From NCBI GenBank assembly GCA_051294375.1, contig CM119268.1:19474625-19538624 (forward strand): a stretch of 64,000 bases of DNA, given 5' to 3'. The notes beneath the pieces are model-generated. The model made no database searches, was not told the DNA's origin, and saw nothing but the letters and a program-made list of their open reading frames with translations. The position numbers and the translations under genes were made by a program. Below, piece after piece: positions 12,385 through 56,348 of the stretch; position 1 is the first letter of the stretch, and each line of letters starts with the position of its first letter. This stretch comes from Paraspadella gotoi. Lineage: Eukaryota; Animalia; Chaetognatha.

Positions 12385-12482
<98 letters not shown>

Positions 12483-17729: not shown

Positions 17730-18490
17730 AATTTGCTTCATTGATTGTTTCATTTCTATTTCCTCTATGCCTCATTGATTGTTTCCTTTATTTTTTTATT
17801 TGCCTCATTGATTGTTTCCTTTCTTTTTCTCTTTGCCTCATTGATTGTTTCCTTACTTTTTCTATTTGCCTCATTGATTGTTTCCTTTCTATTTCTCTTT
17901 GCCTCATTGATTGTAGAAATATTAGGCTTCACCTATCTTTCTCTCGTCAAATTATAAGACCGGTCATTTTGAGTGATTGAAGCAGCCTTTAAGGTCAATG
18001 TTATCTTTATTCTGGCTTTTTGATATATTTTCATTCACGATCGAATCATGTAACACTCACATTGTACAAATTTGAATGAGCGATGCCTCAAACGCGAGAC
18101 CCAAAAGGCATAAAAAATTTAAATACATTTTCTACATTTATTGTTTCCTTTCTTTTTCTCTTTTCCTCATTGATTGTTTCCTTTCTTTTTCTCTTTTTCT
18201 CATTGATTGTTTCCTTTCTTTTTCTCTTTGCCTCATTGATTGTTTCCTTTCTTTTTCTCTTTGCCTCATTGATTGATTCCTTTCTTTTTCTCTTTGCCTC
18301 ATTGATTGTTTCTTTTTCTGTTTGCGTCATTGATTGTTTTCTTTTTTTTTCTCTTTGCCTCAGTGATTGTTTTCTTTCTTTTTCTCTTTGCCTTATTGAT
18401 TGTTTCCTTTCTTTTTCTCTTTGCCTTATTGATTGTTTCCTTTCTATTTCTCTTTGCCTTATTGATTGTTTCCTTTCTATTTCTCTATGC
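17730..18490. repeat. 33-bp minisatellite in two blocks
   Basis: Unit cctcattgattgtttcctttctttttctctttg at about 17730-17915 and 18135-18490. Confidence 0.9.
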
Positions 18491-24791: not shown

Positions 24792-25863
24792 AAGCTGAAT
24801 ATATATTTCTAGCTTTTCATTTTTTTTTACAAAATTAGTTTGTTAGCAATTGTGACTGGTGACAGTGATTAGTGACTTGTGAGAGAGACAAGGAAAAAAA
24901 AACGATTAAAAGTTTTATATGACCAATAAAATTATAAATAATTTAAATAATTACATATATTATAGTTTTAATTATATTTTCATTTTCTATGAAATTGGTA
25001 CAACCAATATAAAAATTATCCATTCATTTAATAAATAAGCTATCTTGCCTCTGACTTTGGACAGGCTTTGGAGGTTTAAGGCCTCCATCACTCTTACAAG
25101 ATAATGACATAGCAGGTCCCTGCAAGCTTTCAATCAAGACTCTCTCACAGTCCTGTTTATTCACTCCCAGATTACATGGCTTCCCTATCAATGAAATGGA
25201 AAATATTTCAAAGAATGTTTCAATTGTATGAAAAGACCACTCCCTTAAGTATTAGATAGTATTATATAATATTTATAGTATATTTACAGTATATTTAATT
25301 ATTATTTATTTATTTATTTATATAATAGTTGTGTTTTAAATGATTAAAATATTATTTCAATAATGTCAATTTTTAAGATATAATCGGTGGAACAGAGAAA
25401 GGATAATTAGTAATTAAAATAGTAATATATGTAATATTATTTGAAAGCAAACAGAGTTACGTTTGCGAGAGTTTGTGTAGTGAAAAAAAATAAGGGAAGA
25501 AAAAAGAGTTTCGCGTTCACGTGACACGACGACTGAAGAAAGAGAAAAAAAATAATTAAAAAGAAAAAAAAATAAAATAAAGAGACAAAAAAGGAGAGAA
25601 TCTGTCGTTGAGATGAGAAAGTTAAAATGTCGACAAGACAGAATGAAGAGGAGGAATAGGAGGAGGAGGAGGAGGAGGAGAAGAAGAGTTACAAGGAGCA
25701 TAGACGAGGAAAGACGAGCTGGAATCGTCTAGGGATGTTTTTCATCTGAAGGGAAAATGGGGAGAGGAAAAGAGGAACTGGAAAAAAATAGGGGAAGTGG
25801 AAAACAAATGAGGAATGAAATGCAGGAGCGAAAGAGGAAGAGGAGCGAGTCAAAGAAAGGAGG

Positions 25864-37108: not shown

Positions 37109-37342
37109 TGTGGAAGACGATGTCGCGAGCAGTTTACCGTCCGTTGCACACAAGGTCCCGAACTTCGGATCGGGCTGTAGTCCGACACTACAAGTGGGTT
37201 AGACGCCCCGTCCCGCTTTTACTTGTGCGCATCAGCAGGGCGCGAACCCGAGTCCTTTGGGTTGGGAGGAGCTCGTGCTACCTCCGGCGCCATAGGTGCT
37301 GCTGATTCTCGGACGAGTAGTGGGGTATGAAATACTACCACT
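37109..37342 (-). mobile_element. Second copy of family B solo LTR (inverted)
   Basis: Highly similar reverse complement of 52036-52272. The minus-strand B box is gggttcgcgcc, and the right terminus is altered. Confidence 0.85.
37146..37230 (-). ncRNA. Twister-ribozyme-like fold in family B LTR
   Basis: Minus strand reads cacaag..GGGA-CGGG-gcgtc-UAA-CCC-AC-[P3 ttgtag/ctacag]-[P4 cccga]-UCCG-AA-GU-[tcggg]..cttgtg. Confidence 0.55.
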
Positions 37343-38399
37343 GGGCACTAACAAAGTTATAAATATCTCACTCTCAGAGTTAAATACCCATGCAATACTT
37401 TCTAGGCCGGACACTTCACCGAGCCACAGGCCATTCACTTCTCGTTGCCGCGAATATTGATTGTAAATGCCTCCTTCCCTCCCCCCCCCCTCTCTCTCTC
37501 TCTCTCTCTCCTCTCTCTTTGTACACTTGACCTTTTATTATTATCTTTCCTTCGATTATCACTAAGGTCATTGTATACTTAATTGCCAATATCTTCTGTA
37601 AATCCACTCTCGAATCCCGCTCATTACAAGTCGCTTACCATTTTTCTATGTTTCATACTATCGCCCCTGACTTTGGACGGCTTTGGGTGGTTAAGGCCTC
37701 CATCACTCTTTACAAGATAATGAATATGGTGCCCTGCAAGCTTTCAATCAAGACTTTCTCACTGTCTCGTTTATTTACTTCCTTATTACCTGACTTCCTT
37801 ATCAATAGATGGTATAATGTTTCAAAGAATGTTCAATTGTATGAAAAGACCACTCCCTTAAGTATTAGATCGGAAAATACTATATTGTACTCCGCCAGCA
37901 TCAAGATACAAGGAGCTGAATTTTATGAAAGTTTAATCGGAGGTAGTCTGGGATATTTTTTATTATTTTATTAAGAATTTTTTTTTTCACTTGCTGTCAT
38001 GTAGCAGACATCGTTAGCTTTCATATGATATCTCACATGATGCATTAAAATTATTTTATGATAGCATATGACATAAAAAAATTGTGATAATTTTTTTTCT
38101 GCCAGGCGCTCGAGACACAGCTAAATCTTAAAATTTAAAAATCTGATAATACAGTCTTTTAGCCCTATGTCAGTAGTTTTTAAATCAGGGGGAACAAAGT
38201 TTTGAACTCCTAAATTATCAAATTTAAATCATATGTTTTTTAAGGTTCTAAATGAATTTTTTTTATTTTTTTTGTGTTTTCAACTAAATGATAACATTAT
38301 CCTTATATTTATATAAACATTTGAGGTATAGAAAATTTTTGTTATATCAGAAACATAATTCAATCTACTAATGTTTCAGAATCATATTTTATTTATTTT

Positions 38400-39010
38400 T
38401 TAAAATGTGCCCAATAAGGCGTAGTGAAAGTTACATACGAAAATTCTAAAAGTCAATTATGAACAACATACCACAGTGAACATTAATTTTTAAAAAAATT
38501 AATTTATGAGCTTTTTAATTTTTGCAGTAGGCTATATTTATATATAGTACTATCCTTTAATATCGAAAAATTTTAAATAGGCTTTTCTTAATTTGATTGC
38601 AGATTTGAATTCCTCGTCAAAAGTTGATAAACAAAATATAAATCATTTTTAAAAATTCTTTATTAAGTGGGTTAAAACTTAAAAAACTATATTATATATG
38701 AAAAGTAATTTTCAGATTAATATAAGCTTTTTTAATTTTTGACCTACTTAATTAATCAATGAAGGAATTTTTCAAAAAGAGTTATTTTCTTTTATCAACT
38801 TTTTATGACGAATCCAAATCTGCAAAAAAATCTTAGAATTGTTTTAATTTTATTATACATTTGGTTTAGTACTAGTATAAATATGGCTACTGCGTAAATT
38901 GTAAAATTTAATATAAATTTTTTTATTATATAAATGTTCATTAGTATAATGTTGTTCGTTCCTCACTTTTAAGAATTTAATTAAGTTAAATTTAGAAATT
39001 TTACTACGTC
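38400..39010. repeat. AT-rich interspersed repeat (DNA-transposon-like), host of LTR insertions
   Basis: Inverted homologue at about 51935-53200, interrupted by the B and D LTRs, and a direct homologue at about 62645-62940. Confidence 0.65.
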
Positions 39011-39641
39011 TTAGTGGCCAAGTGTGTTTAATTTAATTTCAAAAGTTGTTATACTTTTGACTAAGATCTGATCAAGATTTAAATGGAAAAGATGCTCCAT
39101 AATTATGGCTTTAATATGATACCAGTCTCATCGTTCAATCATTTTGGTTCAAAAGATATAAAAAAAATCATTTTTTTATTACCAATTGACTCAGCCAAAG
39201 CCAAATATATAAGGCATCGCGTCTATGCGCGTCTACGTAGGTCAATTTTAAAACAGATTTGGAATCCTCAAACGCATATTTACTAGTAACGTGACGACAT
39301 CAAGTGACAGAAGTTCGGTCTCCTTATTATATAAAAAAGAAAAATTAATTCTAATATTTTTAGTTAATATCTATCAATTTCAACGATAAAAAGGCACTAG
39401 ATATATTGCATGTGATTGAACAATGTTTTCGCAATAATAATTTTATCTATTTTATGTATTTTGGTAAGTATTTTAAGTATTTTTATTCAGTGAGTAAAAT
39501 ATTTGCTAATTTTTATCTTCGACGCTTAACGCCAGACTTCCCTATTTTAACTCCAATATTGTGTGTAAATCCTTTCTTTTGTTGTGTTTCGGTTTAAGGA
39601 GACGAACTATTTAATTGCAATAACAACGATTTTTATTGTTA

Positions 39642-39684
39642 GACGAACATGTTTCGGCTCACAGTCTGAGCCTTCATCAGCGTC
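39642..39684 (-). ncRNA. Minimal type I hammerhead ribozyme (Penelope pLTR type)
   Basis: Minus strand reads gacg-CUGAUGA-a-ggctca(gactg)tgagcc-GAAAC-at-GUU-cgtc. Helices I and II are perfect and helix III is very short and palindromic. An aataaa follows. Confidence 0.85.
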
Positions 39685-39737
39685 AAAGTTTTTGTGAAAT
39701 GCTCACAAATCTTTCTACAAAAGAAGAAGAGGGAGAG

Positions 39738-39802
<65 letters not shown>

Positions 39803-40056
39803 TTTCCAACACAGAGTTTAGAAAGGACATATTACATAGTTTATCTTCCAGAAAAGAAACAACTTTTTTGAATATTTTTTTTAATTTAAAAAAATCATAA
39901 TTCATAAACCAATAAGAATTTAAAAAAAATATTGCTCCCAAGAATTAGTAAATTATCTGTTTATAAAAATTTACCTAAATTCATAAAGCAAGCTATTTAA
40001 AAAAAATATTTACAAAGAATTTTGAATTGTTACAACGATTTTATTGTGATTAAATT

Positions 40057-40100
40057 GCAGACATGTTTCGACTATGAGATTTTCGAGTCTTCATCAGCGC
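40057..40100 (-). ncRNA. Minimal hammerhead ribozyme (Penelope pLTR type)
   Basis: Minus strand reads gcg-CUGAUGA-a-gact...agtc-GAAAC-at-GUC-tgc. Confidence 0.8.
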
Positions 40101-40136
40101 TTATTGACAGTTGTGAATAATGGGACAAGTTGTGAG

Positions 40137-40180
<44 letters not shown>

Positions 40181-40507
40181 GATGAAAAGGTTAAAGTTTT
40201 CCAACAAAAATTGAGACAGATTAGTGGTCAGTTTAGAGGACAGATTTTGTTGAGGCTAGATTGAAAAAGTGGTGAAAAGAAATGAAATTTGGTGAAAGGT
40301 GAAAGAGAGAGACAAATAAACAATTACATTTGAGCAATGTACAACAAAGATAAAATTAAAGAAACTTGATTTGTATGTCTAATAACAAAATTGCAATAAA
40401 TTAATTTTGAAATTTGAAAAATTGAAATGAATGAAATTTGAAATATAAGAGTTTGATTCAGAGGGATAGATAAGTAAAGATTTTAGTGAAATATAAGATG
40501 TATGAAA

Positions 40508-40551
40508 GAGCTGATGAAGACTCGAAAATCTCAGAGTCGAAACATGTCTGC
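40508..40551 (+). ncRNA. Minimal hammerhead ribozyme (inverted pLTR copy)
   Basis: CUGAUGA-a-gactc(gaaaatctca)gagtc-GAAAC-at-GUC-tgc. Helix I is weak in this copy. Confidence 0.75.
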
Positions 40552-41475
40552 AATTTAATCACAATAAAATCGTTGTAACAATTCAAAATTCTTTGTAAAT
40601 CTCTATACAACAACGAAAAGAAAGGATATACCATGGATAAAAAAATATTAAAAAATAATCCTTTTATAAGATTTTTTGATGAAAAATACAAAATCGCATT
40701 ATTAAAAAATCACCATTTAATAGAAAATGCACTTAATTCATCAAGTAAGGTGTTCAACATGTACAGTCTTTTACACTTTAATGATTAAAACTGGTTTCGT
40801 TTGAGATATTGAAGAAATGCCCTAATTTTTCAGTTTTTCAGCATTTTTTGAAAAGTTAGCAGCATTTCCCATAATTAAAAAAAAAAAGAATATTGTAAAT
40901 CATCCGCGCATGTATGAAGCTCGTTTTGAGCCCTACTACTAAGATGGATCACAAACTTCAAATTTTCTGGCAAGGTCTAATGTAGGTGTAAACCAAGAAA
41001 AGAGAGACAGAGAGAGAGAGAGAGAGAGAGGAAGGAAGGAAGGAAGAAAGCAGAATTTTCACACAACGAGAGAGGAAATAAATCATTAGCATGAGAAAAG
41101 TATTACAAAAATCACTGTGCCAGGTCCAAGTAACAATGGAATCGATGGGCGGAAACTTTCAAGGTCAAAGGGTCTTTCTGTGGTTCGGATGCGACCTCCA
41201 CCCGGAGTTCACGACAATGAGGTCAAGAACACTGACGACGACGATAATGAAAACGAAAATTTCGACGGCAACAAAAGCAACAACGGCGAATACAACAAAG
41301 TGGGTACAACTAAAGAGTCTGAAAAAAAATTCTTAAATTAAAAAAAGAAGGAAAAATGTAGGTAAAGATGTGACTAATTTGACTAATTTCGCGTTTTTTC
41401 TGAAATAAGTAATAAGAAATATTTTACGGGAAAGAACTAAGAGGTGTTGTGTTTAATTACAATTAAAAAATATAC

Positions 41476-41636
41476 TGTGGCGAAACCGAAATTCGCCTCC
41501 TGTATATCATTGGTATTGACAGCTAAGTACTCTTTCACCAACCGTGAGTTCCAGGTTCACGGTCACGCTGGTTAAAGTGTAATGGTGTCGGCATAAACAC
41601 GCCAGTGATATGGGGAGGTCACGGCAGTTCAAAAGC
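41476..41636 (+). mobile_element. Truncated copy of family D LTR
   Basis: Starts tgtggcgaaaccgaaattcgcctcc and matches the reverse complement of about 52885-53062. Confidence 0.75.
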
Positions 41637-43401
41637 GTGTATGAGTGAGAGAGAGAGAGTGAGAGAGACGGAAGGAGAGGAGGAGGAAGAAGAGGAGGAA
41701 GAAGAGAAGGAAATAATGAAATAAAAAGAAAGAAAAAAATGGTTACATTTGTTTACAATTGGAAATTGTTACAATTGTTTACATTTAGAAGTTGTAAAAG
41801 TGTGTATTTTTATTTGTATTAAAATTTAGATATAGCTTCTCATCATCAATATCTTTTAAAATCATATGTTTCATATCGATTCAAGTATTATTTGTATGAA
41901 TTTCCTCTTCAATATTATTTACTGCAAAATGCAAATTAGAATTTAGCATACTATATATTTAGTATTGTTCATAGTCTCAGCACTAGAAATTCCCTAACTC
42001 CAGAACGCCCATGTTGATAACGGAAAGTGTAGTGTGATGTAGCGTAGCGTTAAAAACCTTCAGTAACAGTAATAAACAAAACAAACATATTTCTCATAGT
42101 TCATGTCAATAACATACTGAGTAGTAATTGATTGATGTAATAGTAATTGATTGATGTAATAGCAATCTATTGATTGATCTAATCGTAATTCATTGATGTG
42201 ATGATAATCAATCATTGATGCAATGATAGTTGATTGATTGATTGATTGATTCAATAATAGTTGATTGATTGATTCATTCATTTATTCACATGATGAATCA
42301 TTCATCGTAACTAAAACGAACAAATACGTGTATGAGTAGAAATCTACTATGAAATTAAATTCAATATGGGCGGGGGTTCAAAACTTTAGTCTTGAAGTCT
42401 ACTTTCAGGTAAAAAAGAATTTTTTAAAAAAGTTCGATTTTAATGCTTTTATTGTTGCTATCAAAATTACAATATTACTATATAATGATAAAAATTTTTT
42501 TTAATCAATCTTAACTTTTGTAATGGATTCTGATAGAGCATAAAAAGTTAAATAAAAAATATAACTACAACTTTCAAAGATTCTTATGTTTTCTTGGTGA
42601 AAATTAAGAAAAAATAATGCGATAAACCTTTCGTTTTCGTTGTTGTTATGATTTAGAGAAAAAACAAAGTTTTTAATTGTGTTACAACGAATTTAATTAA
42701 TTAATTAATAAAATTATCGAAAAATGATGATGATGATGATTATAAATATTTTTTTTTATTTTTCACCCACTTATGATCAAAATATCAAAAAAAAGAAAAA
42801 AAAGAGAGAGAATTGCAAAGATCCTAAAGATGAGAAGCCATATCTAAACTGTTAACTTTATATGATCGCACACTTCATAAAAATTCATTGTAATGTCGTA
42901 GTAGTTTTATATTTAAAAAAAACTGTAAGCCCCAGTCAAAACTATATAAGAAAAAAGCGTGACGCAGACGCAGACGGCGAGGACGAATCACAAAAAAGCT
43001 GAGTCAATCCTAAATCTGCGCCAAGATGGGCAAGCCCGTCTGGTAAGATAAAAATAGTTGAATCCTTATAAAATAATGACTATTGCAAGATCTTAAAGAT
43101 GAGAAGCCATAATNNNNNNNNNNNNNNNNNNNNNNNNNATATATACTTTGTGGAGACAACTTTTTGCAAAGTACCTGAATCTGATTCTTAAAAATAAAAA
43201 AATCCCTAAAAAAATGTTTAGCCTTTCCTAATAACAATAAATCTAAAAAAAATCAATATATGGGGTATGGAGTATATTAATTTTTTTTTTTAAAAATGTT
43301 TAAATTTTGTTTTGAACAGGCTGCTTGATTCAAATTTTTTTAACGACCTTACTGAATTAGGCTACTCCTAGTAAGAGTGAAAAAAGAGAGAGAAATAAGA
43401 G

Positions 43402-43432
<31 letters not shown>

Positions 43433-44394
43433 AAAAAGAAAAAAAAAGCAAAGAAAGAAAAAAAAGAAAGCAGAGAATGGAGAAAAAGAGAAGTTCGACC
43501 GCTTTTTAGACCGTTTTTAGACAAATCAGAAGAAAGAAAGAAAGAAAAAAATTATATATATATATAATTTTTAAAAATTAAAAAAAAAATGTCACAACCA
43601 TTTTACACTAAAAATTGTTACAATTTTTTTTTATTAAAATTTAGATATAGTTTCTCTTCAAAAAGGTTTTTTTAAATAACATGTATCTCTCTCTCTACAA
43701 TTTTAAATTACTATGAACGCACACTTTAAAAAAATGTAAGCCCCAGTCAAAACTATAGAAAAAAAAACGTGACGATGACGACGCCAACGACAACGACGAC
43801 GACGACGTCACAAGGAAGCTGAACCGAACCAAAATCTAGCCAAGACAGGCTTAAGCCCTTCTGGCGAGATAAAAAAAGTATGAGAGTGAGACAGCAGAAA
43901 GATAGGCTTAGAGAGTGAGAGTTTGAAAGAGAGAGAGGGTTAGAGAAAGAGAGAGTGAGAGAGGAAGATGGAAAGAAAGAGAGAGGAGGGAATAAGAGAC
44001 CGCAATAACTTCCCAACGGAAATATTGTTTCTTTTTTTTTAATTATTTTTTTTATTTCTTTAGTAGAAGCTAATCGATAAACATAATTCTCTGTCTCTCC
44101 CCCACATCCTATTTTCTCTCTCTCTCTCTCTCTCTTACTTTCTCTTTCTCTTACTTTCTCTTTCTCTTACTTTCTCTTTCTCTTACTTTCTTAATATTGT
44201 TTAATTGGTTCGAAGCCACGCTCCTCTCCTTCCTCTATCTTCCTCTATCCTCTCTCTTTCTCTTACTTTCTCTTACTTTCTCTTTCTCTTACTTTCTCTT
44301 TCTCTTACTTTCTCTTTCTTTCTTATTAATTGGTTCGAAACCACGCTCGCTCTCTCTCCTTCCTCTATCTTTGTTTATTTTTGGAACACGATCC

Positions 44395-44453
<59 letters not shown>

Positions 44454-45352
44454 TGATGTCCAAACAGTAGTCTTTCCAACAGCGCACTCAGCCTAAGCGC
44501 TGTCTTAACAGCTCTTCAAGCAGCAGTTCCAAATGACAGAGATTACCAGTCAACGACATCTTGTCTTTATAGAAAGACTACACAGTTGAAGTCAACATTC
44601 AGATTAAAGAAAATATTCAATGATTACTGGTGATAAAAAAAACTTCATCAACGACGAAAATAAGGAAAGGAATGACGAATTTTCGCCTCGTTGCAACGGC
44701 AGGAATGTAATATAAAAAGTAATTTATGTAATGTAAAAAAAAAGTCAACATGTATATTTCATGCGAGAACTTTTCGAACGTTTCAAAACGTACGTAAAGA
44801 ACCGAATGGCCGACTNNNNNNNNNNGACAACGACAACGACAACGACCCGGTCTCTTACATCCGGCCTTGAAGCTTATCTTTTCTGCCAAATATATCTCCG
44901 ACTCTTCTTCTTCTTGCCTCCTTCTCTTCCTCCTCCTCCTGCTGCTCTTCCTTTATTCCTTTATTTTCCTTTATTTTCTCCCTTTATTTTTCTCTCCTTT
45001 TTCTTGCCCTCCCTTTTCTTCCTCCCTTTTTCATTATCTTTCTCTATCTTTATTCTATCCCTCCCTTTTTCCCTCTTTTTCTTTCCCATTTTTCTTTCCC
45101 TCTTTCCTTTCTTTCTTTCTTTCACCCTGTCTTTCTCTTGTTATTTTATTTCCCTCCTCCCTTTCTCCCTCTGTTTTTCTATTCCTTTTCTGCCCTCCTC
45201 CCTTTTTCTATCTTCACCCCAAAATTTCGAAGGTGATCATAATCACCGTTTGGGGACATATTTTTAATCAGCAAAGTTGAGCGGGAAAAAAATCCGGCAT
45301 TTTACACTTTAGTGTTTTTTCACTGTTTATGGTTTGAGGTTTTACGAGAAAG

Positions 45353-45800
45353 TTTTTAGTCGGATCTGCTTATCAGCAGATTCCGACTTTATAATTAACT
45401 TTGTCGCTCCATCGGTCCCACCCCACAAGCTTGTCGGTAAATCATTTTTATCATATCAGAATTTCGAATTATGATAAAGTAAACAAATAAAATGATATCC
45501 GTCCGTCAGTCCGAGCGTCCGTCCGTCCGTCCGTCCCCAACTCCAATTACTCGTGATTTGATGGTTGGATGAGAATGACATTTTGTGTGTGATTAGGAAA
45601 GTGTGATTGAGCTGGATGTGTTGCCGGGTCATTGGCATGTCATAGGCTGAGATGCAGTTGGATTGGAAGCTTGTCATGTGATGCGTCCAGGAAGGTTCCC
45701 TGCGGGATTAAATATATGTAAAAAGATTCATGTAAATGGAGCTTATATTTTTTTTATTTAAACCCTTTCACTCGCACGATTCTATTCAAAACTTTATATG
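45353..45800 (+). mobile_element. H1 element 5' part
   Basis: ttttagtcggatctgcttatcagcagattccgact followed by (GTCC)n. Confidence 0.75.
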
Positions 45801-46599
45801 NNNNNNNNNNNNNNNNNNNNNNNNNNNNNNNNNNNNNNNNNNNNNNNNNNNNNNNNNNNNNNNNNNNNNNNNNNNNNNNNNNNNNNNNNNNNNNNNNNNN
45901 NNNNNNNNNNNNNNNNNNNNNNNNNNNNNNNNNNNNNNNNNNNNNNNNNNNNNNNNNNNNNNNNNNNNNNNNNNNNNNNNNNNNNNNNNNNNNNNNNNNN
46001 NNNNNNNNNNNNNNNNNNNNNNNNNNNNNNNNNNNNNNNNNNNNNNNNNNNNNNNNNNNNNNNNNNNNNNNNNNNNNNNNNNNNNNNNNNNNNNNNNNNN
46101 NNNNNNNNNNNNNNNNNNNNNNNNNNNNNNNNNNNNNNNNNNNNNNNNNNNNNNNNNNNNNNNNNNNNNNNNNNNNNNNNNNNNNNNNNNNNNNNNNNNN
46201 NNNNNNNNNNNNNNNNNNNNNNNNNNNNNNNNNNNNNNNNNNNNNNNNNNNNNNNNNNNNNNNNNNNNNNNNNNNNNNNNNNNNNNNNNNNNNNNNNNNN
46301 NNNNNNNNNNNNNNNNNNNNNNNNNNNNNNNNNNNNNNNNNNNNNNNNNNNNNNNNNNNNNNNNNNNNNNNNNNNNNNNNNNNNNNNNNNNNNNNNNNNN
46401 NNNNNNNNNNNNNNNNNNNNNNNNNNNNNNNNNNNNNNNNNNNNNNNNNNNNNNNNNNNNNNNNNNNNNNNNNNNNNNNNNNNNAAATGAGCTTGCATGG
46501 AAAAAACCAAAGTCAAGTTGACTTAAATTTTTATCATTTATGCTCACTCATAAATATTTTCTTTAATTAAATAATTAATTGATTAATTATTTAATTCAA

Positions 46600-46842
46600 G
46601 TGAAAAAATGAAGCAATTTGAAAAAATGATGCAAGTTGAAAAAATTATGCAAGTTGAAAGAATGATGCAAGTTGAAAAAATGATGAAAGTTGAAAATTTG
46701 ATGAAAGTAGAAAAAATGATGCAAGTTAAAAAAATGATGCACTTTATAAAAATGATGAAAGTTGAAAAAATAATGCAAGTTTAAAAAATTATGTAAGTTT
46801 TAAAAATGATGAAAGTGAAAAAAAATTATGCAGGTTTAAAAA
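46600..46842. repeat. Minisatellite of about 19 bp
   Basis: Repeated aaaaaatgatgcaagttga units. Confidence 0.85.
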
Positions 46843-46880
46843 ATATTACTTAAAATTGTTTAACTTAAAAAAAATATATA

Positions 46881-47631
46881 TGAAATGTACAACACAATAT
46901 AAAAATTATCCATTCATTTAATAAATAAGCTATCTTGCCCCTGACTTTGGACAGGCTTTGGTGGTTTAAGGCCTCCATCACTCTTACAAGATAATGACAT
47001 AGCAGGTCCCTGAAGTTTTCAATCAAGACTCTCTCACAAGTCTTGTTTATTCACTCCCAGAGTACCTGGCTTCCCTATCAATGAAGTGGAAAATATTTCA
47101 AAGAAGTTTCAATTGTATGAAAAAGACCACTCCCTTAAGTATTAGGATCGGGAAATACTTATTCTACTCCGCACTAGCATCAAAATACAAGGAAGCGAAT
47201 TTTATGAAATTGGTACAAACCATATAAAAATTATCCATTCATTTAATAAATAAGCTATCTTGCCCCTGACTTTGGACAGGCTTTGGTGGTTTTAAGGCCT
47301 CCATCACTCTTTACAAATAATGACATAGCAGGTCCCTGGAAGTTTCAATCAAGACTTCTCACAGTCTTGTTTATTCACTCCCAGAGTACCTGGCTTCCCT
47401 ATCAATGAAGTGGGAAAATATTTCAAAGAAAGTTTCAATTGTATGAAAAGACCACTCCCTTAAAGTATTAGATCGGGAATACTTATTCTACCTCCGCACT
47501 AGCATCAAAATACAAGGAGCTGGAATTTTATGAAATTGGTACAACCCATATAAAAATTATCCCATTTCTAATAAATAAGCTATCTTGCCCCTGACTTTGG
47601 ACAGGCTTTGTGGTTTAAGGCCTCCATCACT
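46881..47631. repeat. Tandem repeat of about 325 bp (about 2.3 copies)
   Basis: Units start at about 46881, 47205 and 47530. Dispersed monomers lie at about 24989-25257 and 37660-37930. Confidence 0.9.
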
Positions 47632-47635
47632 GTTT

Positions 47636-47882
47636 GTACAAGTAGCATCCGTCTCAGAATTTCTGAGACGGCAAGCTCTGTAACTCGAAGTACAAATGAG
47701 ATTTTAAAGAGAGCTTTTTGTCTTGATATCGAGTACACATATGGCTACTTCCCCTTCGGTAAGCCATTGCTCTCCGACAATTTTGGGACATCAGAACTTA
47801 TTATAAAAAGATGCTTCAGCCAGATTTGAACCCGAAACCTTTTTCGTAACATTGAAATCCGGCGCGCTAAGCACTCGGCCAA
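47636..47882 (-). mobile_element. tRNA-derived SINE-like repeat
   Basis: Minus strand has the A box tggccgagtgc, the B box ggttcaaatc and a 3' hairpin ccgtctcagaa/ttctgagacgg. Confidence 0.65.
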
Positions 47883-48278
47883 ATGATTTTCAAAAAAATT
47901 TTGTACAAAAATAAATTATATAAAGCTGTAGTTTGCTTTTAATTTTTTTGGGGAAACAAAAAAACTCAACGTTCGAAGGCAGAGATTTCGACATCCGAGT
48001 CCCAAGTTTCCCGATTCGGGACAGAATGTCGCAACGACGACAGATAATACGAAGAAAGCGAATATCTGGGCTTATTTTTAATGTTTGAAATTGAGGAAAA
48101 GTCAGTTGCCTCTTTAAGCCGCACGTTGAACATTTTACCTTGCCTTTTAAGGTGTTTTATTAAGTGTTTTTAACTAGTTGCTTATTGTATCAATATTAAT
48201 AAATAGGCTAATGATTGAGAGAATGAAAAGAATGAAATCGTTTCAAAAAAAGAATAATCTAAGTTTTCGATTTGCATA

Positions 48279-48835
48279 AAAACAAGTTTGAGCAACAATG
48301 TCGATCTGCCTACAATAATTAAGCAGTAATAAGCTAATACGATGATAATTCTTTTGGTAATGTTATCTGACTTTCAATTTGTGATCCTAACAGATCATAA
48401 CACGTTTGTAACATAAACAAGTTTGAGCAAACAATGTCGGATCTGCCAACGATCATTATCGGTAATTAATAATAAATTCAAATTAATTAATTAGGCAATT
48501 AATTATTTTGATCCAAAATGTTGTTTTGATTGATTAATTGACTGATGAATTAATTAGTGATTAATTAATGATTTATTGATTAATTAACTGATTAATTATT
48601 TGATTAATTAATACATCTTGCATTTACATTTAATATAAAAAATCATAATCAATTGTGAAACACTTTTTTGTTTTTTTCCATTTAAACTCATTTCCACTCA
48701 AACGATTCCATCAAAACTTGATTTCCAGTTTAATCACACACTTTTCTACTCAATTTCAAGTCAATCTCCCCATCCACTCATGCATAATTTGTTCAAATAG
48801 TGAAATATATTTTTTCTCCCCGATCCGACTAAAAA
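48279..48835 (-). mobile_element. H1 element with duplicated 3' end
   Basis: Two aacaagtttgagc ends (about 48280 and 48416), ending at gatccgactaaaa. Confidence 0.7.
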
Positions 48836-48889
48836 GAATAGAAAAACCAAAATTTATATTGAGGTTTTTGAATTTTTTTTTTAAATAAC

Positions 48890-49141
48890 GAGATGCCGAG
48901 TGGTTAAAAACTAAGACTTCGACGCAGAATGAATGTAGGATTAGAATTCCACTCAATGTAAACTTTATCAATAAACTGCTATGTCCCAAAAAGTAGTCCA
49001 TTAGAGCAATTGGCTTACCGAAGGGGAGATAGCCATATCGAGTACTCAATAAACAAGACAAAAACCTCTCTTTCAAATTATCATTTGTACTCGAGTTACA
49101 GAGCTTGCCGTCTCAGAAATTCTAGACGGATGCTACTGTAC
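48890..49141 (+). mobile_element. tRNA-derived SINE-like repeat, second copy
   Basis: gccgagtggtta A box, with a body that is the reverse complement of about 47636-47800. Confidence 0.65.
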
Positions 49142-49144
49142 CAT

Positions 49145-49865
49145 AGTAACAGTTCAGTTTAATCCCTCGCAAGCGATTTACGCAGCCATTGGTATGATCC
49201 GTTATGATCAGTGAGGATCCAAAATTGAAAGAATTATCGTGATTTATCATCTGAATAGCCAATTACCGCTTAATTATCGTTGGCAGATCCGACATTGTTT
49301 GCTCAAAATTGTTTTTAGTTGGATCTGCTTATCAGCAGATTCCGACTCTATAATTCACTTTGTCCGTCCGTCGGTCCGCCCCAACAATTTTGTCGGTCAT
49401 TTTCTTAAATCATGTCAGAACATCGAATTATGATAAATTAAGCAAAAAAAAAACTATGTCCGTCCGTCCATCCATCTGTCTGTCTGTCTGTCTGTCTTTC
49501 TGTCTTTCTGTCTGTCTGTCTGTCTTTCTGTCTGTAGGTCCGTTCGTTCCCCCTTAGCAATAAACTCCAATTACTCGTGAATTAAATTTTGTGTGTGAGT
49601 AGGAAAGTGTGTGATTGATCTGGATATGAAGTTTGAATGGAATCGTGCGAGTGGAAATAAATTTAAATGGAAAAAAACATCAGTCACATTTAGTTGAATC
49701 TTTTTATTTATTTTAACCCATAATTACTATGATTAATCCTAATTGGATGGATAGAATGGGATGAAATTTTGTGTGTGGGAATGAGAGTGTGTGATTGAGC
49801 AGAATATAAAGTTTCGATGAAATAAAGAGTGGAAATGAGTTTGCATGAAAAAAACAAAAGTCACA
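49145..49865 (+). mobile_element. Head-to-tail H1 junction
   Basis: The 3' end gcagatccgacattgtttgctcaaaattgtt directly abuts the 5' end tttagttggatctgcttatcagcagattccgac at about 49313. (GTCY)n follows. Confidence 0.75.
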
Positions 49866-50089
49866 TCGCAGGAAACGGATTGATCGTGGAGTTTGGAAAG
49901 AGGAGAGGGAACGAGATCACTCTTCAACTTACCTTCAAGAACTCAACATCAAATTCTACTTTATTGTATTTGTTTACTGTCTGTTTATTCTGCATAATCT
50001 CCATCAATTATTGTTATCTCCTCGTGTGATTAATGTTAACAAAACTTCTCTAATTTCTCCTCAATTAACCACGCCTACTTCCTTCAATG

Positions 50090-50126
50090 TGGTGGCAGTG
50101 GTGGGATTCGAACCCACACCTCCAGA
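50090..50126 (-). pseudogene. Reverse-transcribed 3' fragment of mature tRNA-Leu including CCA (extended PBS-like)
   Basis: Minus strand tctggaggtgtgggttcgaatcccaccactgccaCCA matches the tRNA-Leu(AAG/TAG)-type 3' end. Confidence 0.8.
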
Positions 50127-50274
50127 TGTATTTATTAATTAGCAAAACCTGGGAAATAGCTTATTTTGATTAAATATTTAGAGATAGAGCATCATAAGAA
50201 TATTTTGTTTTACGTATTTTTCTTACTTGTCTAATCACTTTTGAAGAGACAGTAATTATTGTTTTGAGTTATAA

Positions 50275-50348
50275 GCAGTGCCTGAGCTTCGGATCAAGCT
50301 GTAACACCGTGTTACAGACGGGTTAAGCGCCCCATCCCTCTTAACTGC
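50275..50348 (-). ncRNA. Twister-ribozyme-like fold in family C 3' LTR
   Basis: Minus strand reads gcagt..GGGA-UGGG-gcgct-UAA-CCC-GU-[P3 ctgtaaca/tgttacag]-[P4 cttga]-UCCG-AA-GC-[tcagg]-actgc. The sister LTR has CGGG and GC at the T1 and T2 positions but lacks P4. Confidence 0.55.
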
Positions 50349-50439
50349 AAGGCAACCACCGGGCTAGAACCCCGGACCTTTGAGTTGGAAGGCGAGAAAT
50401 TTGCCTCCTACACCAATGGCTGCTGATGAATGGTTGGTG

Positions 50440-50786
50440 TGATGGAGACGGAATCGTGAAGAGGAATCTCCAAAGACTCTGAAGTTTCCGACATGTGATA
50501 TTCATATTTATTTTTTCATGTTCATTCATTACTTGTTCCCTTTCAGTTTTGTGAGCATTGTGTTTATTATCATAGAAAGTAGGTGTACGAGTGTGAGTCC
50601 TAATCTGGTTGGCGTCCCTGTTCTCTTGTGTATTCATATTCACAGATCCTATAATGTGGGAAATCTTGTGGTCGACCGTGCTGCCATGTGGTTAACTGAC
50701 ATTGGAGTCTACACGTTAGAGGGTCTCGTGCTTCTCAAGCCCGGCCGGCGCCCGCCGGAATCGCTCACAACAATCACCCTCTAACA
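50440..50786. mobile_element. Solo LTR of an unrelated family nested in the 3' LTR of the TRIM
   Basis: TG...CA ends with an imperfect inverted repeat (tgatggag / ctctaaca) and flanks ggtg/agtg (TSD with one mismatch). It interrupts ggttggtg|gattttag, which is contiguous in the other LTR. Confidence 0.75.
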
Positions 50787-52035
50787 AGTGGATTTTAGTC
50801 CACCATTTATCCCCCCTTCTCTAGGGAGAAGTCTGTTGCGTATCTTCAGTGAATTGTTGGTGGAAAGTTCATCACCAATTTGAGGCATGTTGCCTGATGT
50901 GTTATTGGTGGAAAGTGCATCGCCAGGTTGAGGCAAGTCGCCTGAAAGTGTTGTTGTTTTTTTGTGTTCGGAAGTCGAGCTCACCAATGAAGAGACAGCA
51001 ATTATTGTTATGAGTGTTACAGGCGGGTTTAGCGCCCCGTCCCTCTTAACTGCAAGGCAACCGCCGGGCTAGAACCCTGGTACTTTGGGTTGGAAGGCGA
51101 ATGACTTGCTTCCTGAACCAATGGGCGCTGTTGAACGGTTGGTGGATTTTAGTCCACCATACTTTTATATTTTTTCTCTTCCGCTCCTCTCCTACCTACT
51201 CCGCTCCATCACCCCTCACCACCCCTTCCCCCTCTTTGCCTCATTCCACTCATAGTCACCCTTGCGTGACATCGTTCTGGGAATCATCACGTGTCGAGGA
51301 TGTGATTCCACTTCGCCCCTCGGTCCACCTCCCTTTCTCCTCTCTCCTGGATGAGGGACTGCCTCTCTTTTCGTCTTTAAAACTCTTTCTTATCTATCGC
51401 TACCTATCTCTTCTATTTTCTCTTCATTTTCTTTTCTTTACTTTTCTTTTTTTTAGCTGCGCCACGAGTTGACTCGGGGTAAAACTTAGTGATGTTTTTT
51501 CTGTCAGACGGTTGATTCGTGCACGAGTCTGTCCGTCGGTATGTCTTATGTATCAAATGGTGAGCCATACTGGTTTATAATAGTCAAGCTCCTCTCACTA
51601 ATATGTTTTTACCCCGATCACATCGCTCCTCCCCCCCCATTCTCTCCCCTATCGGTTTCTCCCTCCCCCCCCCTGCCCGCCACCTTCCGATGGCGTCTCG
51701 GACTTAATTCACTGGTGATTTCACTGAATCACTTATCACTCTGTCCCGGTTATGTGATGCGAGCGCGTCCCTCCGATTCGGTCCTTTTTTCGGCCAACGA
51801 GAGAAAATAAGAAAGAATAAAGAAAAAAAGGAAGAAGAATATTTTTTTTCTTGCAAGGGAGGGGGGAATTCGTTGCTCGTCTTTTCACAGTTACGAAGTG
51901 GCAGAATTCGAGTGAGGGGTACGTATTAAAGCATAGTAAAAATTTTAAATTTAACTTTAATTAAAATTCCAAAGTGAGGAACAAACAACAATATACTAAT
52001 GAACATTTATGTTTAAAAAAAGTATAATAAATTTT

Positions 52036-52272
52036 TGTAGTGGTAGTATTTCATACCCCACTACTCGTCCGAGAATCAGCAGCACCTATGGCGCCGGACG
52101 TAGCACGAGCTCCTCACAACCCAAAGGACTCGTGTTCACGCCCTGCTGAATCACACAAGTAAAAGCGGGTCGGGCCGTCTAACCCACCTGTAGTGTCCGA
52201 CTACAGCCCGATCCGAAGTTCGGGACCTTGTGTGCAACGGACGGTAAACTGCTCGCGGCATCGTCTTCCACA
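52036..52272 (+). mobile_element. Solo LTR, family B (tRNA-derived head plus twister-like fold)
   Basis: tgtag...tccaca termini and TSD tttt (52032-35, 52273-76). A paralogous host repeat near 38900 shows the empty site. A-box-like tggcgccggacg and B-box-like gtgttcacgcc are present. Confidence 0.85.
52152..52234 (+). ncRNA. Twister-ribozyme-like fold in family B LTR (A>T at 52170)
   Basis: Outer stem cacacaag/cttgtgtg, P3 ctgtag/ctacag, P4 cccga/tcggg, T1 tccg/cggg, T2 ac/gt, UAA at 52180-82. Confidence 0.5.
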
Positions 52273-52671
52273 TTTTGCAATTTACGCAGTAGGCCATATT
52301 TATACTAGTACTAATCTAATAAATGTTTAAATTTCAAAATAGTTTTTTTGTAAAATTTTTTGACATTTTTGACAATTTTCGTCATCAAAAGTTGATATAA
52401 AGAAATATAACTCATTTTTAAAGATTTCTTTCATTAAGATGATAAAATATAAAAGAAAAAAAATTTTAAGCTGAAAATCTTTTTATGAAATTGGTACATT
52501 GGTATACATTGGTATACATTGGTAATTTATATTAAATATAGTTTTTTTAATTTTTAACCCACTTAATGAAAGAATTTTTATTTTCTTTTATCAGTTTTTG
52601 ACGAGGAATTCAAATCTGCAATCAAAATTAAGAACAGTCTTTTTTGAATATTTACGATTTTATAAGGATAG

Positions 52672-53062
52672 TATGGCAACGGGGGGACATGTGTGATGCA
52701 CGGTGTGTGAGGCATCTCCCTGTAATCGGGCATAGCAAAGTTCACGCCACCTCAAAGCATGACACCTCCAATCGTAACCTAGTGGCTCATTGAGTAAAGC
52801 CATCAGCTCAAGACCACTAGGTAGCGGGTTTAATCCCAACCTAGTACCTACCTTAGGGGAAGTGTGAGGACGGCCGTAAGCCAGGGCTTTGGACCTGCGG
52901 TAACCACCCCATGTCACTGGCGTGTATATGCCGACACAATCACACTTTAACCAGCGTGACTGTAAGGGGATTGAACCCGGAACTCACGGTTGATGAATGA
53001 GTACTTAGCTGTCCAAGCCAACGGGACAAGCTAAACGGGAGGCGAATTTAGGATTCGCCACA
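52672..53062 (-). mobile_element. Solo LTR, family D (tRNA-derived head)
   Basis: Termini tatggc...gccaca and TSD atag (52668-71, 53063-66). The empty site aggatagtactata is seen in a paralogous repeat near 38545 (reverse complement). The minus strand shows a 5' hairpin ggcgaat/attcgcc, an A-box-like tggcttggacag and a B box gggttcaatccc. Confidence 0.85.
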
Positions 53063-54033
53063 ATAGTACTATATATAAATATAGCCTACTGCGAAAATTG
53101 AAGAACAAAAAATGATTTTTTTTATAAATTAATGTTTACTGATGGTATGTTGTTCATAATTGACATTTAGAATTTTCGTATGTAACTTTCACTACGCTCT
53201 AGTAAGTATATGCTAGCGATACGATAATTCTGTGCATATAAAAATTAAAATACGTTTTAATAATTTGTATATCAAATATAGTTTTAATAAGATTAAAAAA
53301 AAGTGAAGAAAAAGCCTCTTAGGATAAGCTATCAAATAATATTATGACTTTTGGTCTGATGATTACAACGATGACTACAGTGATGACGACGAAAAAACAA
53401 ACACGATGACACTGATGACGACAACAATTGCTACGAATCCGACGACAGAGACGACTGATTTAAACAGAAGACGCGACGACGAAAACGACGACGATGACGA
53501 CGATGCCCTCTAGACTCGAAAACAAACATTGCGGAACCACCTGATGCTCCTAAACTGAACTCACGAATTTTGAGAAGCAAGAGCACGCGAATCCAATGCC
53601 ATGGTACAATCATAACATCTCATTGCATTACTTTACATTACATAACATTATATTCAATCCGTTGCCCTGCCACAATAATCGTTCCTGATTAAATTACATT
53701 CTGCGCCTTTTTACCGCTTGGAAAAACGTTTTTTTTTCGTCTTCTTTTTTCATTTCTATCTTTCTTTCATCCTCTTTATTACTTTTTTCCTTCCTCTCCT
53801 TTTTCTCTTGGTTTTTCATTCTTTCTTTCTTTTTTTTCGTGAATTGGTCGCCGGTGCCATCTAGGGGGAATGTGGCACCTCAGGTGTTCTAAACTTTATG
53901 ACGCGCGAGAATATGACAAATGATGACAGCAACGCTATTGCAAAAACACTCTCTCTCCTTCTTCCCTTCTTTACCTATATATTCGACTTATCTTCTTTCT
54001 TCTTTTTTTTCCATACCTCTCTCTATCGCGGCT

Positions 54034-54115
<82 letters not shown>

Positions 54116-55686
54116 CAGTTTACAAAAACTTGTATTTGTTCCAGATTAAAAATGTATTTATTTCTCTCTCCCTGTCTTAATCTCTCCTCTCTCTCTCTCT
54201 CTCTTCTCTCTCCTCTCTCTCTCTCCTCTATCTCCTCTCTCTCTCTTTCATCTCCCATCTTTGAATCGCTAGTATTTATGAGTCCATTTCTTCGTCTTGA
54301 TGTTTATGACTTTCGCCTCACGTCTTCCACGAATTTTTTTCTTTGCTGCCCAGAGATCAAAGGACCAAACTTTGCTTCTTCCAAACGACTCGATATTTTC
54401 GGACAGAATTGTAATCATCGTTGTCGTCGTCGTCGTTTTTATCCCATCACCAATAATTTTCGGCCCTATTTTCCCGAAGCGACCCAAATCATCTTTAATT
54501 CGATATTAAATTAGTTTTTAGTTTTAAAGATTAGCTTAGTGGTTAGGATTGAGGATTAGCTTAGGGGTTAGGTTATGGATTAAAGTTAGGGATTAGGTTA
54601 GTGATTAAGGTTAGAGATTAAGGACTTTGAATTAAGGTTTAGAATTATGGTTAAAGATTAACGATAAAGGTTTAGGTTTAGGTTTAAATTTTGGATTTTA
54701 AAACGAGGTAAAATATTAAGATTATAATTAAGTTCAGAAATAGGGAGCTTTTGGCAAACCGGATTTTCTCTGTTGTTTGACCCATTCCCTTCTTTCCTCT
54801 CTCTCTTTCATATCCTTCTCTCCAAAAAAGGAAACAATTTTTTTTCTCCTTTTTGCAGAATGGTGGACTTTGATGACGTCATTTAGTCGTCGTCATTTCC
54901 TCAATCGTCGTCATCAACGTCGTCATGGTCGTTGTCTTCTTTACTTCCCCCCGCCCCCCCACATCCGCCGGAAGCGTTCGGCGCGGTCGCTTGGAAACGG
55001 AATTGAAACGAGGCATCGCTCGCTTCTTACGGTTGTTTACGGCTGGACGCCTGCTTGATTGCTTACGTCGACGCTTGTATCGTTGCTTGACGATTACTGG
55101 CGCGTTGCTTGCCTCGCGTCACGTGGTTATAATTGTTTTTTTGTTTTTTTTGTTTTTTTGTGTGTGTTTGTATACTTCTAACTCAATATTAATCAAATAT
55201 TTTATCCTCTTATTAATATTACGTTTCGTTGACAGGTTTTTGGTTTTCGGCTACCAGTGCATTCTTTTTTTAAACCAATTTCGATGGCGAAATTGAATTG
55301 GGTTTAAACCTCGAATTTGGTTTGTTGGTGACTCGATAGCAAGCCTTCGCCGACTTTCGCTTGTCGATCTCACTTTGTCGCGTCTCTTCGCCTCATTTGC
55401 TTCAGTCGCTGTCGTTGTTGTTGTTGTTGTTGTTGTTGTAGTTTTTGTTGCTTCATTATCCTTTTGGCGTTGTGGTCGTTGTTGTTGTGGTCGTTGTTGT
55501 TATTTTCGTTGTTGGGCCAATTGAAAAGCTTCAATGTGATGAAGCTTAAATTTTATTTGCCGTTTTTTCCTTAGAAATTAATCTCTTTCTTCTTTTACTA
55601 CACAATGAAAATACTTAAAAAAATTTAATTCATTGTCGAAATTAATAGGATTTCAGACAAGGAAAAGTAGACAATAAACTAGATAT

Positions 55687-55940
55687 TGTGGTGGTATATT
55701 CACACCGCCTCACGTCCGTCATCCTTCAGCCAAATCCATTGGCTCAGAGGGGGAACACACCATCCCAAGCGTAGTGTTCCATCCACAGTCCTAACGACTT
55801 CCCTCTGCGTTGGCATTGCGAGACCGTCCTAGGGTAACTGCGCCAGTGACTGGGTGCGTCACTGAGGGTCGCAAGCCCCCAAAACCAACAGTAACATGCC
55901 CAATCCCAATGGGCATCACAGGCAACCCGCTTTTGCCATA
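55687..55940 (+). mobile_element. Solo LTR, family E (tRNA-like head plus twister-like fold)
   Basis: tgtggt...gccata termini, TSD atat (55683-86, 55941-44), a 5' hairpin and the A box tggctcagagg. It forms a GC-rich island in AT-rich context. Confidence 0.8.
55809..55889 (+). ncRNA. Twister-ribozyme-like double pseudoknot (P5-type permutation)
   Basis: UAA-CUGC-GC, then P3 cagtgac/gtcactg, then P4 ggg/ccc closing the loop UCGCAAGC. T1 is UCGC(55869-72)/GCGA(55818-21), T2 is GC/GC, and the outer stem is gttgg/ccaac. The conserved GA before T1 is replaced by UU. Confidence 0.55.
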
Positions 55941-56348
55941 ATATGCTATTTATTGCTGCTTAAAATACTACAGACTATGCATTCTCCCAGCGAAAAATTA
56001 CATAATATTTTCTCCGTTTTTTTATAAAACCTCGTTGTGTTTTTATTATATTAAATATAGTTTTTTTTACATATAGCTTTTCTTTTTTGTCCCTTTTTTT
56101 ACCGCCTACATTTTTTTTATTCTTTCGCTTTAACTCTCAGCGTGGGATAAACACGACAGAATCTCTGGGGAAGAACAAGAACATGGAGGACAAAAACATA
56201 GAGAACAAGAAAACCTCTTCTCATCTTTCCTTACTTCTTTTTTTCTCTTTTTTTTCTTTCATTTTTTCTTTCTTTCTTTCCTTATTTTTTTTCATATTTT
56301 CTTTCTTTCATTTCTTTCCTTCTTTAATATTTCCTTTATTTTTGTCTG

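Follow-up and report, generated by a model that had tools for sequence, protein, structure and literature searches.

Long terminal repeat (LTR) retrozymes are so far known from plants, with hammerhead ribozymes, and miniature LTR elements with RNA polymerase III (Pol III) promoters are known without a ribozyme. As portrayed in the accessible parts of two papers (PMC4918200, PMC7761336), plant LTR retrozymes are non-coding units of 600–1000 nt with a type III hammerhead in both LTRs, a tRNA-Met primer-binding site (PBS), a polypurine tract (PPT) and a 4-bp target-site duplication (TSD), and no tRNA-derived internal promoter is described for them there. Helenus (with TRIMp3) is a terminal-repeat retrotransposon in miniature (TRIM) with two short LTRs, a PBS and a PPT, non-coding and present as several families per genome; tRNA-like A and B boxes lie in its LTRs, its TSD is of the animal 4-bp type and many of its copies are solo LTRs, while Pol III transcription has not been validated for Helenus itself (PMC10886601, accessible parts). 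Here, these two sets of features are reported together in a 64,000-nt stretch of the genome of the chaetognath Paraspadella gotoi (GCA_051294375.1, contig CM119268.1, positions 19,474,625 to 19,538,624, forward strand; this whole stretch is called the window), in which short LTR elements carry a tRNA-like part followed by a twister-type domain. Judged from the sequence, the best reading is that these elements would work like LTR retrozymes, family C being a Helenus-type TRIM by the features compared below, with a variant of the twister ribozyme. The first-pass annotation of this stretch had named Ajax as the tRNA-bearing TRIM; according to the same source that type is Helenus, and Ajax is the 5S type with a 5-bp TSD (PMC10886601). 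The LTRs described here carry none of the 5S-derived sequence typical of Ajax and Cassandra, and an Rfam scan of the window (E up to 5) listed neither a 5S match nor a hammerhead family.

Element C (50242..51161, minus strand, TSD CTTT) is the copy with two LTRs. On the minus strand it consists of a 5′ LTR (50988..51161), a PBS-like stretch (50969..50986) that begins with TGG one base past the 5′ LTR, a 178-nt internal part, the PPT AGAGAAGGGGGGA (50810..50822), which adjoins the start of the 3′ LTR, and the 3′ LTR itself (50242..50809), and its tRNA head and twister are on the same strand as this order. The two LTRs are 85% identical over 131 positions. An intact twister lies at 50272-50349 in the 3′ LTR, with the cleavage U at 50325; the 5′ LTR keeps the corresponding U at 51031 and has lost most of stems P3 and P4 and of loop L4 to a 41-nt deletion. 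Thus, C shares with Helenus two LTRs, a PBS, a PPT, a lack of coding sequence and a length under ~1.3 kb, and the LTR tRNA-like part shows the Helenus box patterns (A, TRGCY..YGG; B, GGTTC). With plant LTR retrozymes it shares a ribozyme in both LTRs (partly deleted in the 5′ LTR), the PBS, the PPT, the 4-bp TSD and, as proposed below, a unit-length RNA without an R repeat; the ribozyme is a twister fold instead of a hammerhead. It differs from Helenus in about 100–130 nt of twister domain and tail beyond the tRNA part, which in Helenus LTRs lies near the 3′ end (PMC10886601, accessible supplement). The tRNA-in-LTR half of the design has therefore already been described in Helenus. The Helenus paper (PMC10886601) contains no occurrence of the word "twister", and a check of its supplement with six L4-loop motifs, which is a motif check and not a structural search, gave six occurrences, the five listed all being in internal regions and none in an LTR. 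In the literature covered, with Roth et al. 2014 and Repbase/Dfam outside that coverage, no description was found of a twister in an LTR element or TRIM.

Read evidence was drawn from contigs of four public runs (X1, X2, X4 and X9) aligned to 50200-53100 and 55660-55960. One read joint in C, 51162>50811, was considered as proof of a tandem array and dropped, since a normal PPT–3′ LTR junction fits it too. The 3′ LTR of C is split by a nested 347-bp insert with TG..CA ends (50440-50786, flanks GGTG/AGTG, AATAAA near its 3′ end on the minus strand), which has about 100–200 times the unique depth in X1 and is probably an ordinary solo LTR. At 50075-50125 (minus strand), 120 nt from C, the 3′ half of a tRNA stands on its own, with an acceptor-like end and the perfect B box GGGTTCGAATCCC.

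The other LTRs belong to families B, D, E and G. Family B has two inverted copies, 95% identical over 236 nt, namely the solo LTRs B1 (37109..37350, minus strand, TSD ACAA), which is the best-preserved twister copy with a damaged 5′ terminus, and B2 (52036..52272, plus strand, TSD TTTT). Family D consists of D1 (41476..41636, plus strand), which is 3′-truncated, and the solo LTR D2 (52672..53062, minus strand, TSD ATAG), the two being 78% identical over 180 columns, and family E is a solo LTR at 55687..55940 (plus strand, TSD ATAT). The sixth family, G, is the 5′ half of an LTR (52720..52881, plus strand) that starts with TGTAA, contains A and B boxes and ends 2 nt after the UAA; it is a 161-nt insert nested in the P5 3′ strand of D2, with the joint 52720>52882 present in junction contigs of X2 and X4. 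Exact 4-bp TSDs were found at 5/5 complete insertions, with a chance of 0.005–0.015 per site at the local composition, the boundaries having been picked with the TSD in view and that of B1 being less sure on account of its damaged 5′ end. The termini are of the TGT/TAT..ACA/ATA/TCA type, with boundaries refined for B2, D2 and E.

These elements are highly repeated. In X1 the summed depth was 1.8e5–2.2e6 on the elements vs. 157–179 on the unique flanks, and the contrast was alike in all four runs; such summed depth is no exact copy number and gives an order of magnitude of thousands-fold over the unique flanks. At 51161, the end of C, some 100 contigs in each large run continue into sequence outside the window, with unlike flanks, and contigs leave E at 55683-55687 in the same manner. 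The read joints 52021>52272 and 52673>53067 are the empty sites of B2 and D2. Run X9 was set aside as expression evidence, its RNA nature being a guess and its coverage of the unique flanks resembling that of the DNA runs. Both B2 (51850-52640) and D2 (52590-53200) are inside AT-rich multi-copy repeats, with which 38419-39006 was grouped, and in reads the sequence flanking the ends of C and E is AT-rich too, which suggests a target preference.

The layout proposed by the first-pass annotation, i.e., a 5′ hairpin, A and B boxes and then a structured domain, recurs across the LTR families, with the A box at about +42 to +64, the B box at about +86 to +108 and the cleavage U at about +131 to +158 (the D1 positions are shorter owing to a deletion). 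In B1 the tRNA-like head (37236..37292, minus strand) has the A box TGGCGCCGGAGG and the B box GGTTCGCGCC, in which A58 is changed. The A boxes are near consensus across the LTRs. The B box starts with GGTTC in B1, C and D, with TGTTC in E and B2 and with GGTTT in G; it is perfect in D2, and in B1 and C the GGTTC is followed by mismatches. Pol III transcription from these boxes is probable.

The domain that follows holds, at the level of sequence, as a twister in P5 order (GA-T1′-P1-UAA-P2-T2-P3-P4) in the LTRs. The type-P5 twister (RF02684; PMC5408937, accessible parts) has the same order, P2′-GA-T1′-P1-UAA-P2-T2-(P3)-P4, the same L4 pattern U-NNN-AA-GY, two pseudoknots, the catalytic G and A positions and a closing P5. 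It differs in that T1 and T2 are CCC/GGG and GC/GC there and other pairs here, and in that the present variant has a loop-less palindromic P1, a P2 of 3 bp plus a bulge in B, C and F, and sub-gathering scores. The UAA, the GA, L4, T1, T2, P4 and P5 are exact in B1, in the C 3′ LTR and in the tandem family F described below, and are present in D and E only with the majority letters of the reads. The B1 domain (37146..37232, minus strand) comprises a P5 of 9 bp, a P2 of 3 bp with a bulge (CCC/G(C)GG), the GA, a P3 of 7 bp, a P4 of 5 bp, T1 CCG/CGG and T2 AC/GU, with the U of the UAA at 37201; in B2 (52152-52235, plus strand, U at 52180) the GA has become GU and one P1 pair is mismatched. Family C has T1 CCG/UGG, T2 GU/GC and P2 CCC/G(A)GG, and family F has T1 CCA/UGG, T2 AC/GU and P2 ACC/G(A)GU. 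The most canonical core is that of family D when D1 (plus strand, intact UAA with U at 41594) and D2 (52883-52957, minus strand, U at 52928) are read together, with all four P2 pairs (ACAC/GUGU, 4/4 also in D1 itself), T2 GC/GC and T1 CCA/UGG. In E (55803-55895, plus strand, U at 55835), P2 has 3 bp plus a C-A first pair, and the half-LTR G reads AA-GUGU-GA-GGA up to its P1 and has its UAA at 52877.

The first-pass annotation had recognised twister topology in B, C and E, which is retained in P5 order; D, which it had left out, carries the most canonical core of all. Its predicted cleavage sites (37201/37200, 52180/52181 and 55835/55836) coincide with the U of the UAA. Its T1 of UCGC/GCGA in E has to be replaced. 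When the domain is anchored on the GA and the UAA, the partner is CCG, and at 55872 the letter is G in 99% of the read depth, so that T1 becomes CGG/CCG; the earlier pairing arose from a private change of that copy. It had missed the half-LTR family G, the tandem family F and the palindromic P1 of six families.

Several lines of evidence support the fold. A descriptor that follows the P5 order (P2′, GA, T1′, P1, UAA, P2, T2, and P4 with U-NNN-AA-GY) matched three sites without mismatch (B1, C and F) vs. 0.1 per shuffled window (40 shuffles), a comparison that is partly circular, the descriptor having been tuned on the same window. Because MAFFT did not keep D and E in register when the whole domain was aligned, pairs were counted on seven B/C/F rows, leaving aside D, E, G, copies C5 and F5, and the P5 stem. 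In these rows 91.9% of 136 cells pair and 10/23 pairs change on both sides; slid structures pair in 23–51%, and the covariation score was reached by 0/500 shuffles, which is not a probability because only three related families enter and the structure was derived from the same rows. The read majorities are more independent support for the fold than this pair count. Nine majority differences fall in the E domain, of which four turn a non-pair into a pair, one turns a wobble into C-G (55839 T>C, in P2) and none breaks a pair; of the remainder, two restore the A run of L2 (55816-17 to A) and two lie in the P3 loop (55854-55). The pair-forming changes are C>G at 55872, which completes T1, and changes to G at 55884, 55893 and 55895, which complete P5 pairs whose partners were assigned after the majority letters had been seen. 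D2 regains its UAA with the majority letter at 52926 (A>T, plus strand; 99.7% in X1), and P5 can draw a 3′ strand from the loose-end consensus at 52882. In addition, a covariance model trained on neither D nor E still picks up D2 (E 8.5e-4), with the next non-family match at E 0.2. It is very probable that the fold is under selection, and the combined LTR, tRNA and twister anatomy is stronger than it first appeared, because the family-majority letters and a fifth and a sixth family fit it.

The variant is further marked by its P1. The first-pass annotation had called P1 nearly absent; a better description is a loop-less palindrome. In six of six families P1 is a self-complementary 6- or 8-mer without a loop, each with a different sequence, namely GGCGUC (B), GGCGCU (C), UGUCGGCA (D, read in D1), UCCUAGGG (E), AGGCCU (F) and CGGCCG (G), and the palindrome is damaged in copies B2 and C5. 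The background of self-complementarity in these LTRs is 4.5% of 6-mers and 1.6% of 8-mers. As a hairpin P1 has a positive energy (+2.7 to +5.6 kcal/mol vs. –6.3 to –10.7 for the self-duplex) and so lacks the stable P1 hairpin of the type-P5 class. For comparison, 16 loci with a canonical core were collected with P1 left free at 4–26 nt, of which 13 pass the Twister-P5 gathering score (L037-L046 and L048-L050, from IMG/VR contigs and GTDB genomes, two of them on one Chthonomonadales contig). All 13 of these prokaryotic or phage twisters have a long P1 hairpin and none has a palindrome; L041, which a regular expression had flagged as palindromic, was rejected on account of its long hairpin. A family-specific scan of metagenome contigs gave no match. 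Looser scans gave 0, 9 and 1 viral loci and 26 metagenome loci, and these 36 were taken as chance, as P4 reaches at least 4 bp in 0/36; a palindromic P1 is likewise found in 0/36. No description of a palindromic-P1 twister was found in the literature covered.

A parallel exists in the hammerheads of metazoan non-LTR retrozymes and of Penelope pseudo-LTRs (PMC7229834, PMC6765202, 10.64898/2026.07.22.740005; accessible parts), which share the minimal stem, the palindromic loop and the dimer action and differ in being hammerheads without LTR, PBS or PPT. Hammerheads with a 1-bp stem and a palindromic tetraloop act as dimers (PMC7229834). By analogy, two P1 palindromes would pair into a domain-swapped double twister; that cleavage is assisted by such dimers is a tentative suggestion, held at somewhat less than even odds. 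Twisters without P1 cleave at near wild-type rate according to one source (PMC5408937), and such cleavage is called "inefficient" in another (PMC8501958), both as far as accessible. Dimer dependence is therefore not required, and the palindrome may only assist as a dimer or may bring RNAs together as dimers for some other function. Weak P1 stems are also tolerated in the T-variant twisters of the RTE element Perere-3 (PMC8501958, accessible parts), which are likewise linked to a retroelement; those are of type P1, belong to a non-LTR element, where they occupy the 5′ end, and have a P1 formed from the target site.

Family F occupies 46879..47635 (minus strand) as ~2.3 tandem units of 323–326 bp with 36% GC, and further copies lie at 24988-25244 and 37658-37930 (minus strand). 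It has the same palindromic-P1 P5 twister variant as the LTR families, without the tRNA head. Like metazoan non-LTR retrozymes, whose units are of 150–450 bp in the accessible accounts, F is tandem and low in GC, and it looks like a twister version of such a retrozyme. A 2026 preprint recognises two hammerhead types of retrozyme, the LTR type of plants and the non-LTR type of metazoans, the word "twister" being absent from its accessible part (10.64898/2026.07.22.740005). Naiads lack canonical hammerheads, and the Naiad paper likewise has no occurrence of "twister". The F array is truncated by a tRNA-headed repeat at 47636-47890 (minus strand; A box at 47881, B box at 47832), of which a second, partial and inverted copy lies at 48981-49141 (plus strand); this repeat is probably a short interspersed nuclear element (SINE).

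The reading preferred here, to which a probability of roughly 55% is given on the sequence features above, is that these are protein-free TRIMs with tRNA-like boxes and a twister that cut themselves in both LTRs, yielding a unit-length RNA that is circularised and copied by an autonomous element. Pol III would initiate at the tRNA head in the 5′ LTR and transcribe through the element, and both LTR ribozymes would cut at the U-A bond; self-cleavage by these twisters is likely. The product would consist of a single LTR and the internal region (about 400 nt in the case of C), without a terminal repeat and with a 5′-OH and a cyclic phosphate at its ends. Ligation would be favoured because, in P5 order, the monomer ends carry ribozyme halves clamped by P5 and P2, and the circle would then be primed at the PBS, as in plant retrozymes, where a repeat-less monomer is ligated to a circle and primed at the PBS (PMC4918200, accessible part); animal retrozyme monomers are ligated by RtcB (PMC7229834, accessible part). 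Copying and insertion would be carried out by the enzymes of an autonomous element, probably of the Gypsy type. For the circular RNA route, the odds are about even. A broader and rather speculative extension is a non-plant radiation of LTR retrozymes that combines a Pol III promoter with a dimer-gated twister, P1 pairing between the two LTRs of one transcript, the same module also driving the tandem retrozyme F; the precursor would then be cut at both sites, and the ligated circle and solo-LTR transcripts would stay intact.

A number of observations weigh against the preferred reading. Family C alone has the two-LTR form in the window, the copies of B, D, E and G being solo LTRs or parts of LTRs, and B, C and E have degenerate B boxes. 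P2 is imperfect in four families, and at the C-A pair of E no variant above 8% is listed in the reads; the canonical D core has to be assembled from two damaged copies and one majority letter, the D majority letters being among the 40 of 165 difference rows that were listed. The covariance model from B, C and F misses E. The first-pass annotation had pointed to the Rfam twister models as a check, and no element reached a gathering score: E scored 28.0 of 67.2 bits with twister-P1, F scored 28.1, 25.8 and 20.2 of 37.6 with Twister-P5, and B, C and D were not listed for the twister models. Nested-only folding, with z-scores of –3.5 to +0.5, recovered P3, P4 and P5 in B1 and B2 but missed them in the copies E and D2. 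The published dispensability of P1 for cleavage (PMC5408937, accessible part) counts against the dimer aspect.

The main rival, also weighing against circularisation, is that the twister is active and a single cut leaves a linear RNA competent for reverse transcription: one cut would leave a terminal repeat of ~90 nt, so that ordinary LTR reverse transcription could proceed with no circle. In variants of this route the 3′ LTR cut would stand in for a Pol III terminator, or the 5′ cut would trim a read-through transcript. Most Helenus LTRs terminate with a T-rich tract a short way past their tRNA part (PMC10886601, accessible supplement), and here the twister is in that place; runs of four T are nearly absent from the sense strands, and in Perere-3 a twister trims the 5′ end of transcripts (PMC8501958, accessible part). 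However, the scarcity of such runs (1 in 1437 nt vs. 2.6 expected, P 0.25) is not significant and is weak as a sign of Pol III use; the sole run is in E and is missing from the family E loose-end consensus. The linear route moreover needs a way to spare one ribozyme, because both LTRs carry the same one, and the presence of the module in the tandem repeat F fits the logic of a unit-length monomer. About one chance in four is left to it.

Less probable still, at odds clearly below those of the linear route, is that these are plain Helenus-type TRIMs whose twister is an inactive relic of an ancestral tRNA-headed or Penelope-derived insert with no role today. The imperfect P2 and the low Rfam scores suit such a relic, as does the proposal by Kojima that TRIMs of this kind arise via SINE insertion into an LTR (PMC10886601, accessible part), but compensatory changes maintain both pseudoknots, alongside the GA, the UAA and the AA, in families that cannot otherwise be aligned, and in E and D the majority letters speak for the fold. 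Least probable, and quite unlikely, is that B, D, E and G are stand-alone SINE-like units or units resembling miniature inverted-repeat transposable elements (MITEs), moving as single ribozyme circles or otherwise, with only C a TRIM: no internal region is seen for them in the window and the flanks at the E ends are all unlike, yet their layout and terminal letters equal those of the C LTR, their TSDs are 4-bp and not long, they have no poly-A or repeat tail, and solo LTRs are also more numerous than internal parts in both Helenus and plant retrozymes (accessible accounts).

If the self-cutting, circularising TRIM is the right reading, the ribozyme class of LTR retrozymes would be exchangeable, the circular-RNA route would extend beyond plants, and eukaryotic twisters, so far described as tied to RTE-type elements (PMC8501958, accessible part), would have a role outside them. 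The six families with six P1 palindromes offer a ready test of whether twisters act as dimers like minimal hammerheads. Since the variant escapes the Rfam thresholds, similar elements may be widely missed.

The remainder of the window is repeat-rich non-coding DNA. Pfam searches of 99 of the 115 filtered open reading frames gave three weak matches, all below cut-off, and thus no gene, and ARAGORN found no tRNA gene in the window. A long, diverged inverted duplication relates 1904-8043 to 11571-16049, with blocks 71–87% identical. Tandem arrays lie at 11552-11904 (~55 bp), 17667-18556 (~33 bp) and 46548-46871 (~18 bp), and a MITE-like 95-nt inverted repeat is found at 40008-40102 and 40506-40600, its arms being 98% complementary and spaced by 403 nt.

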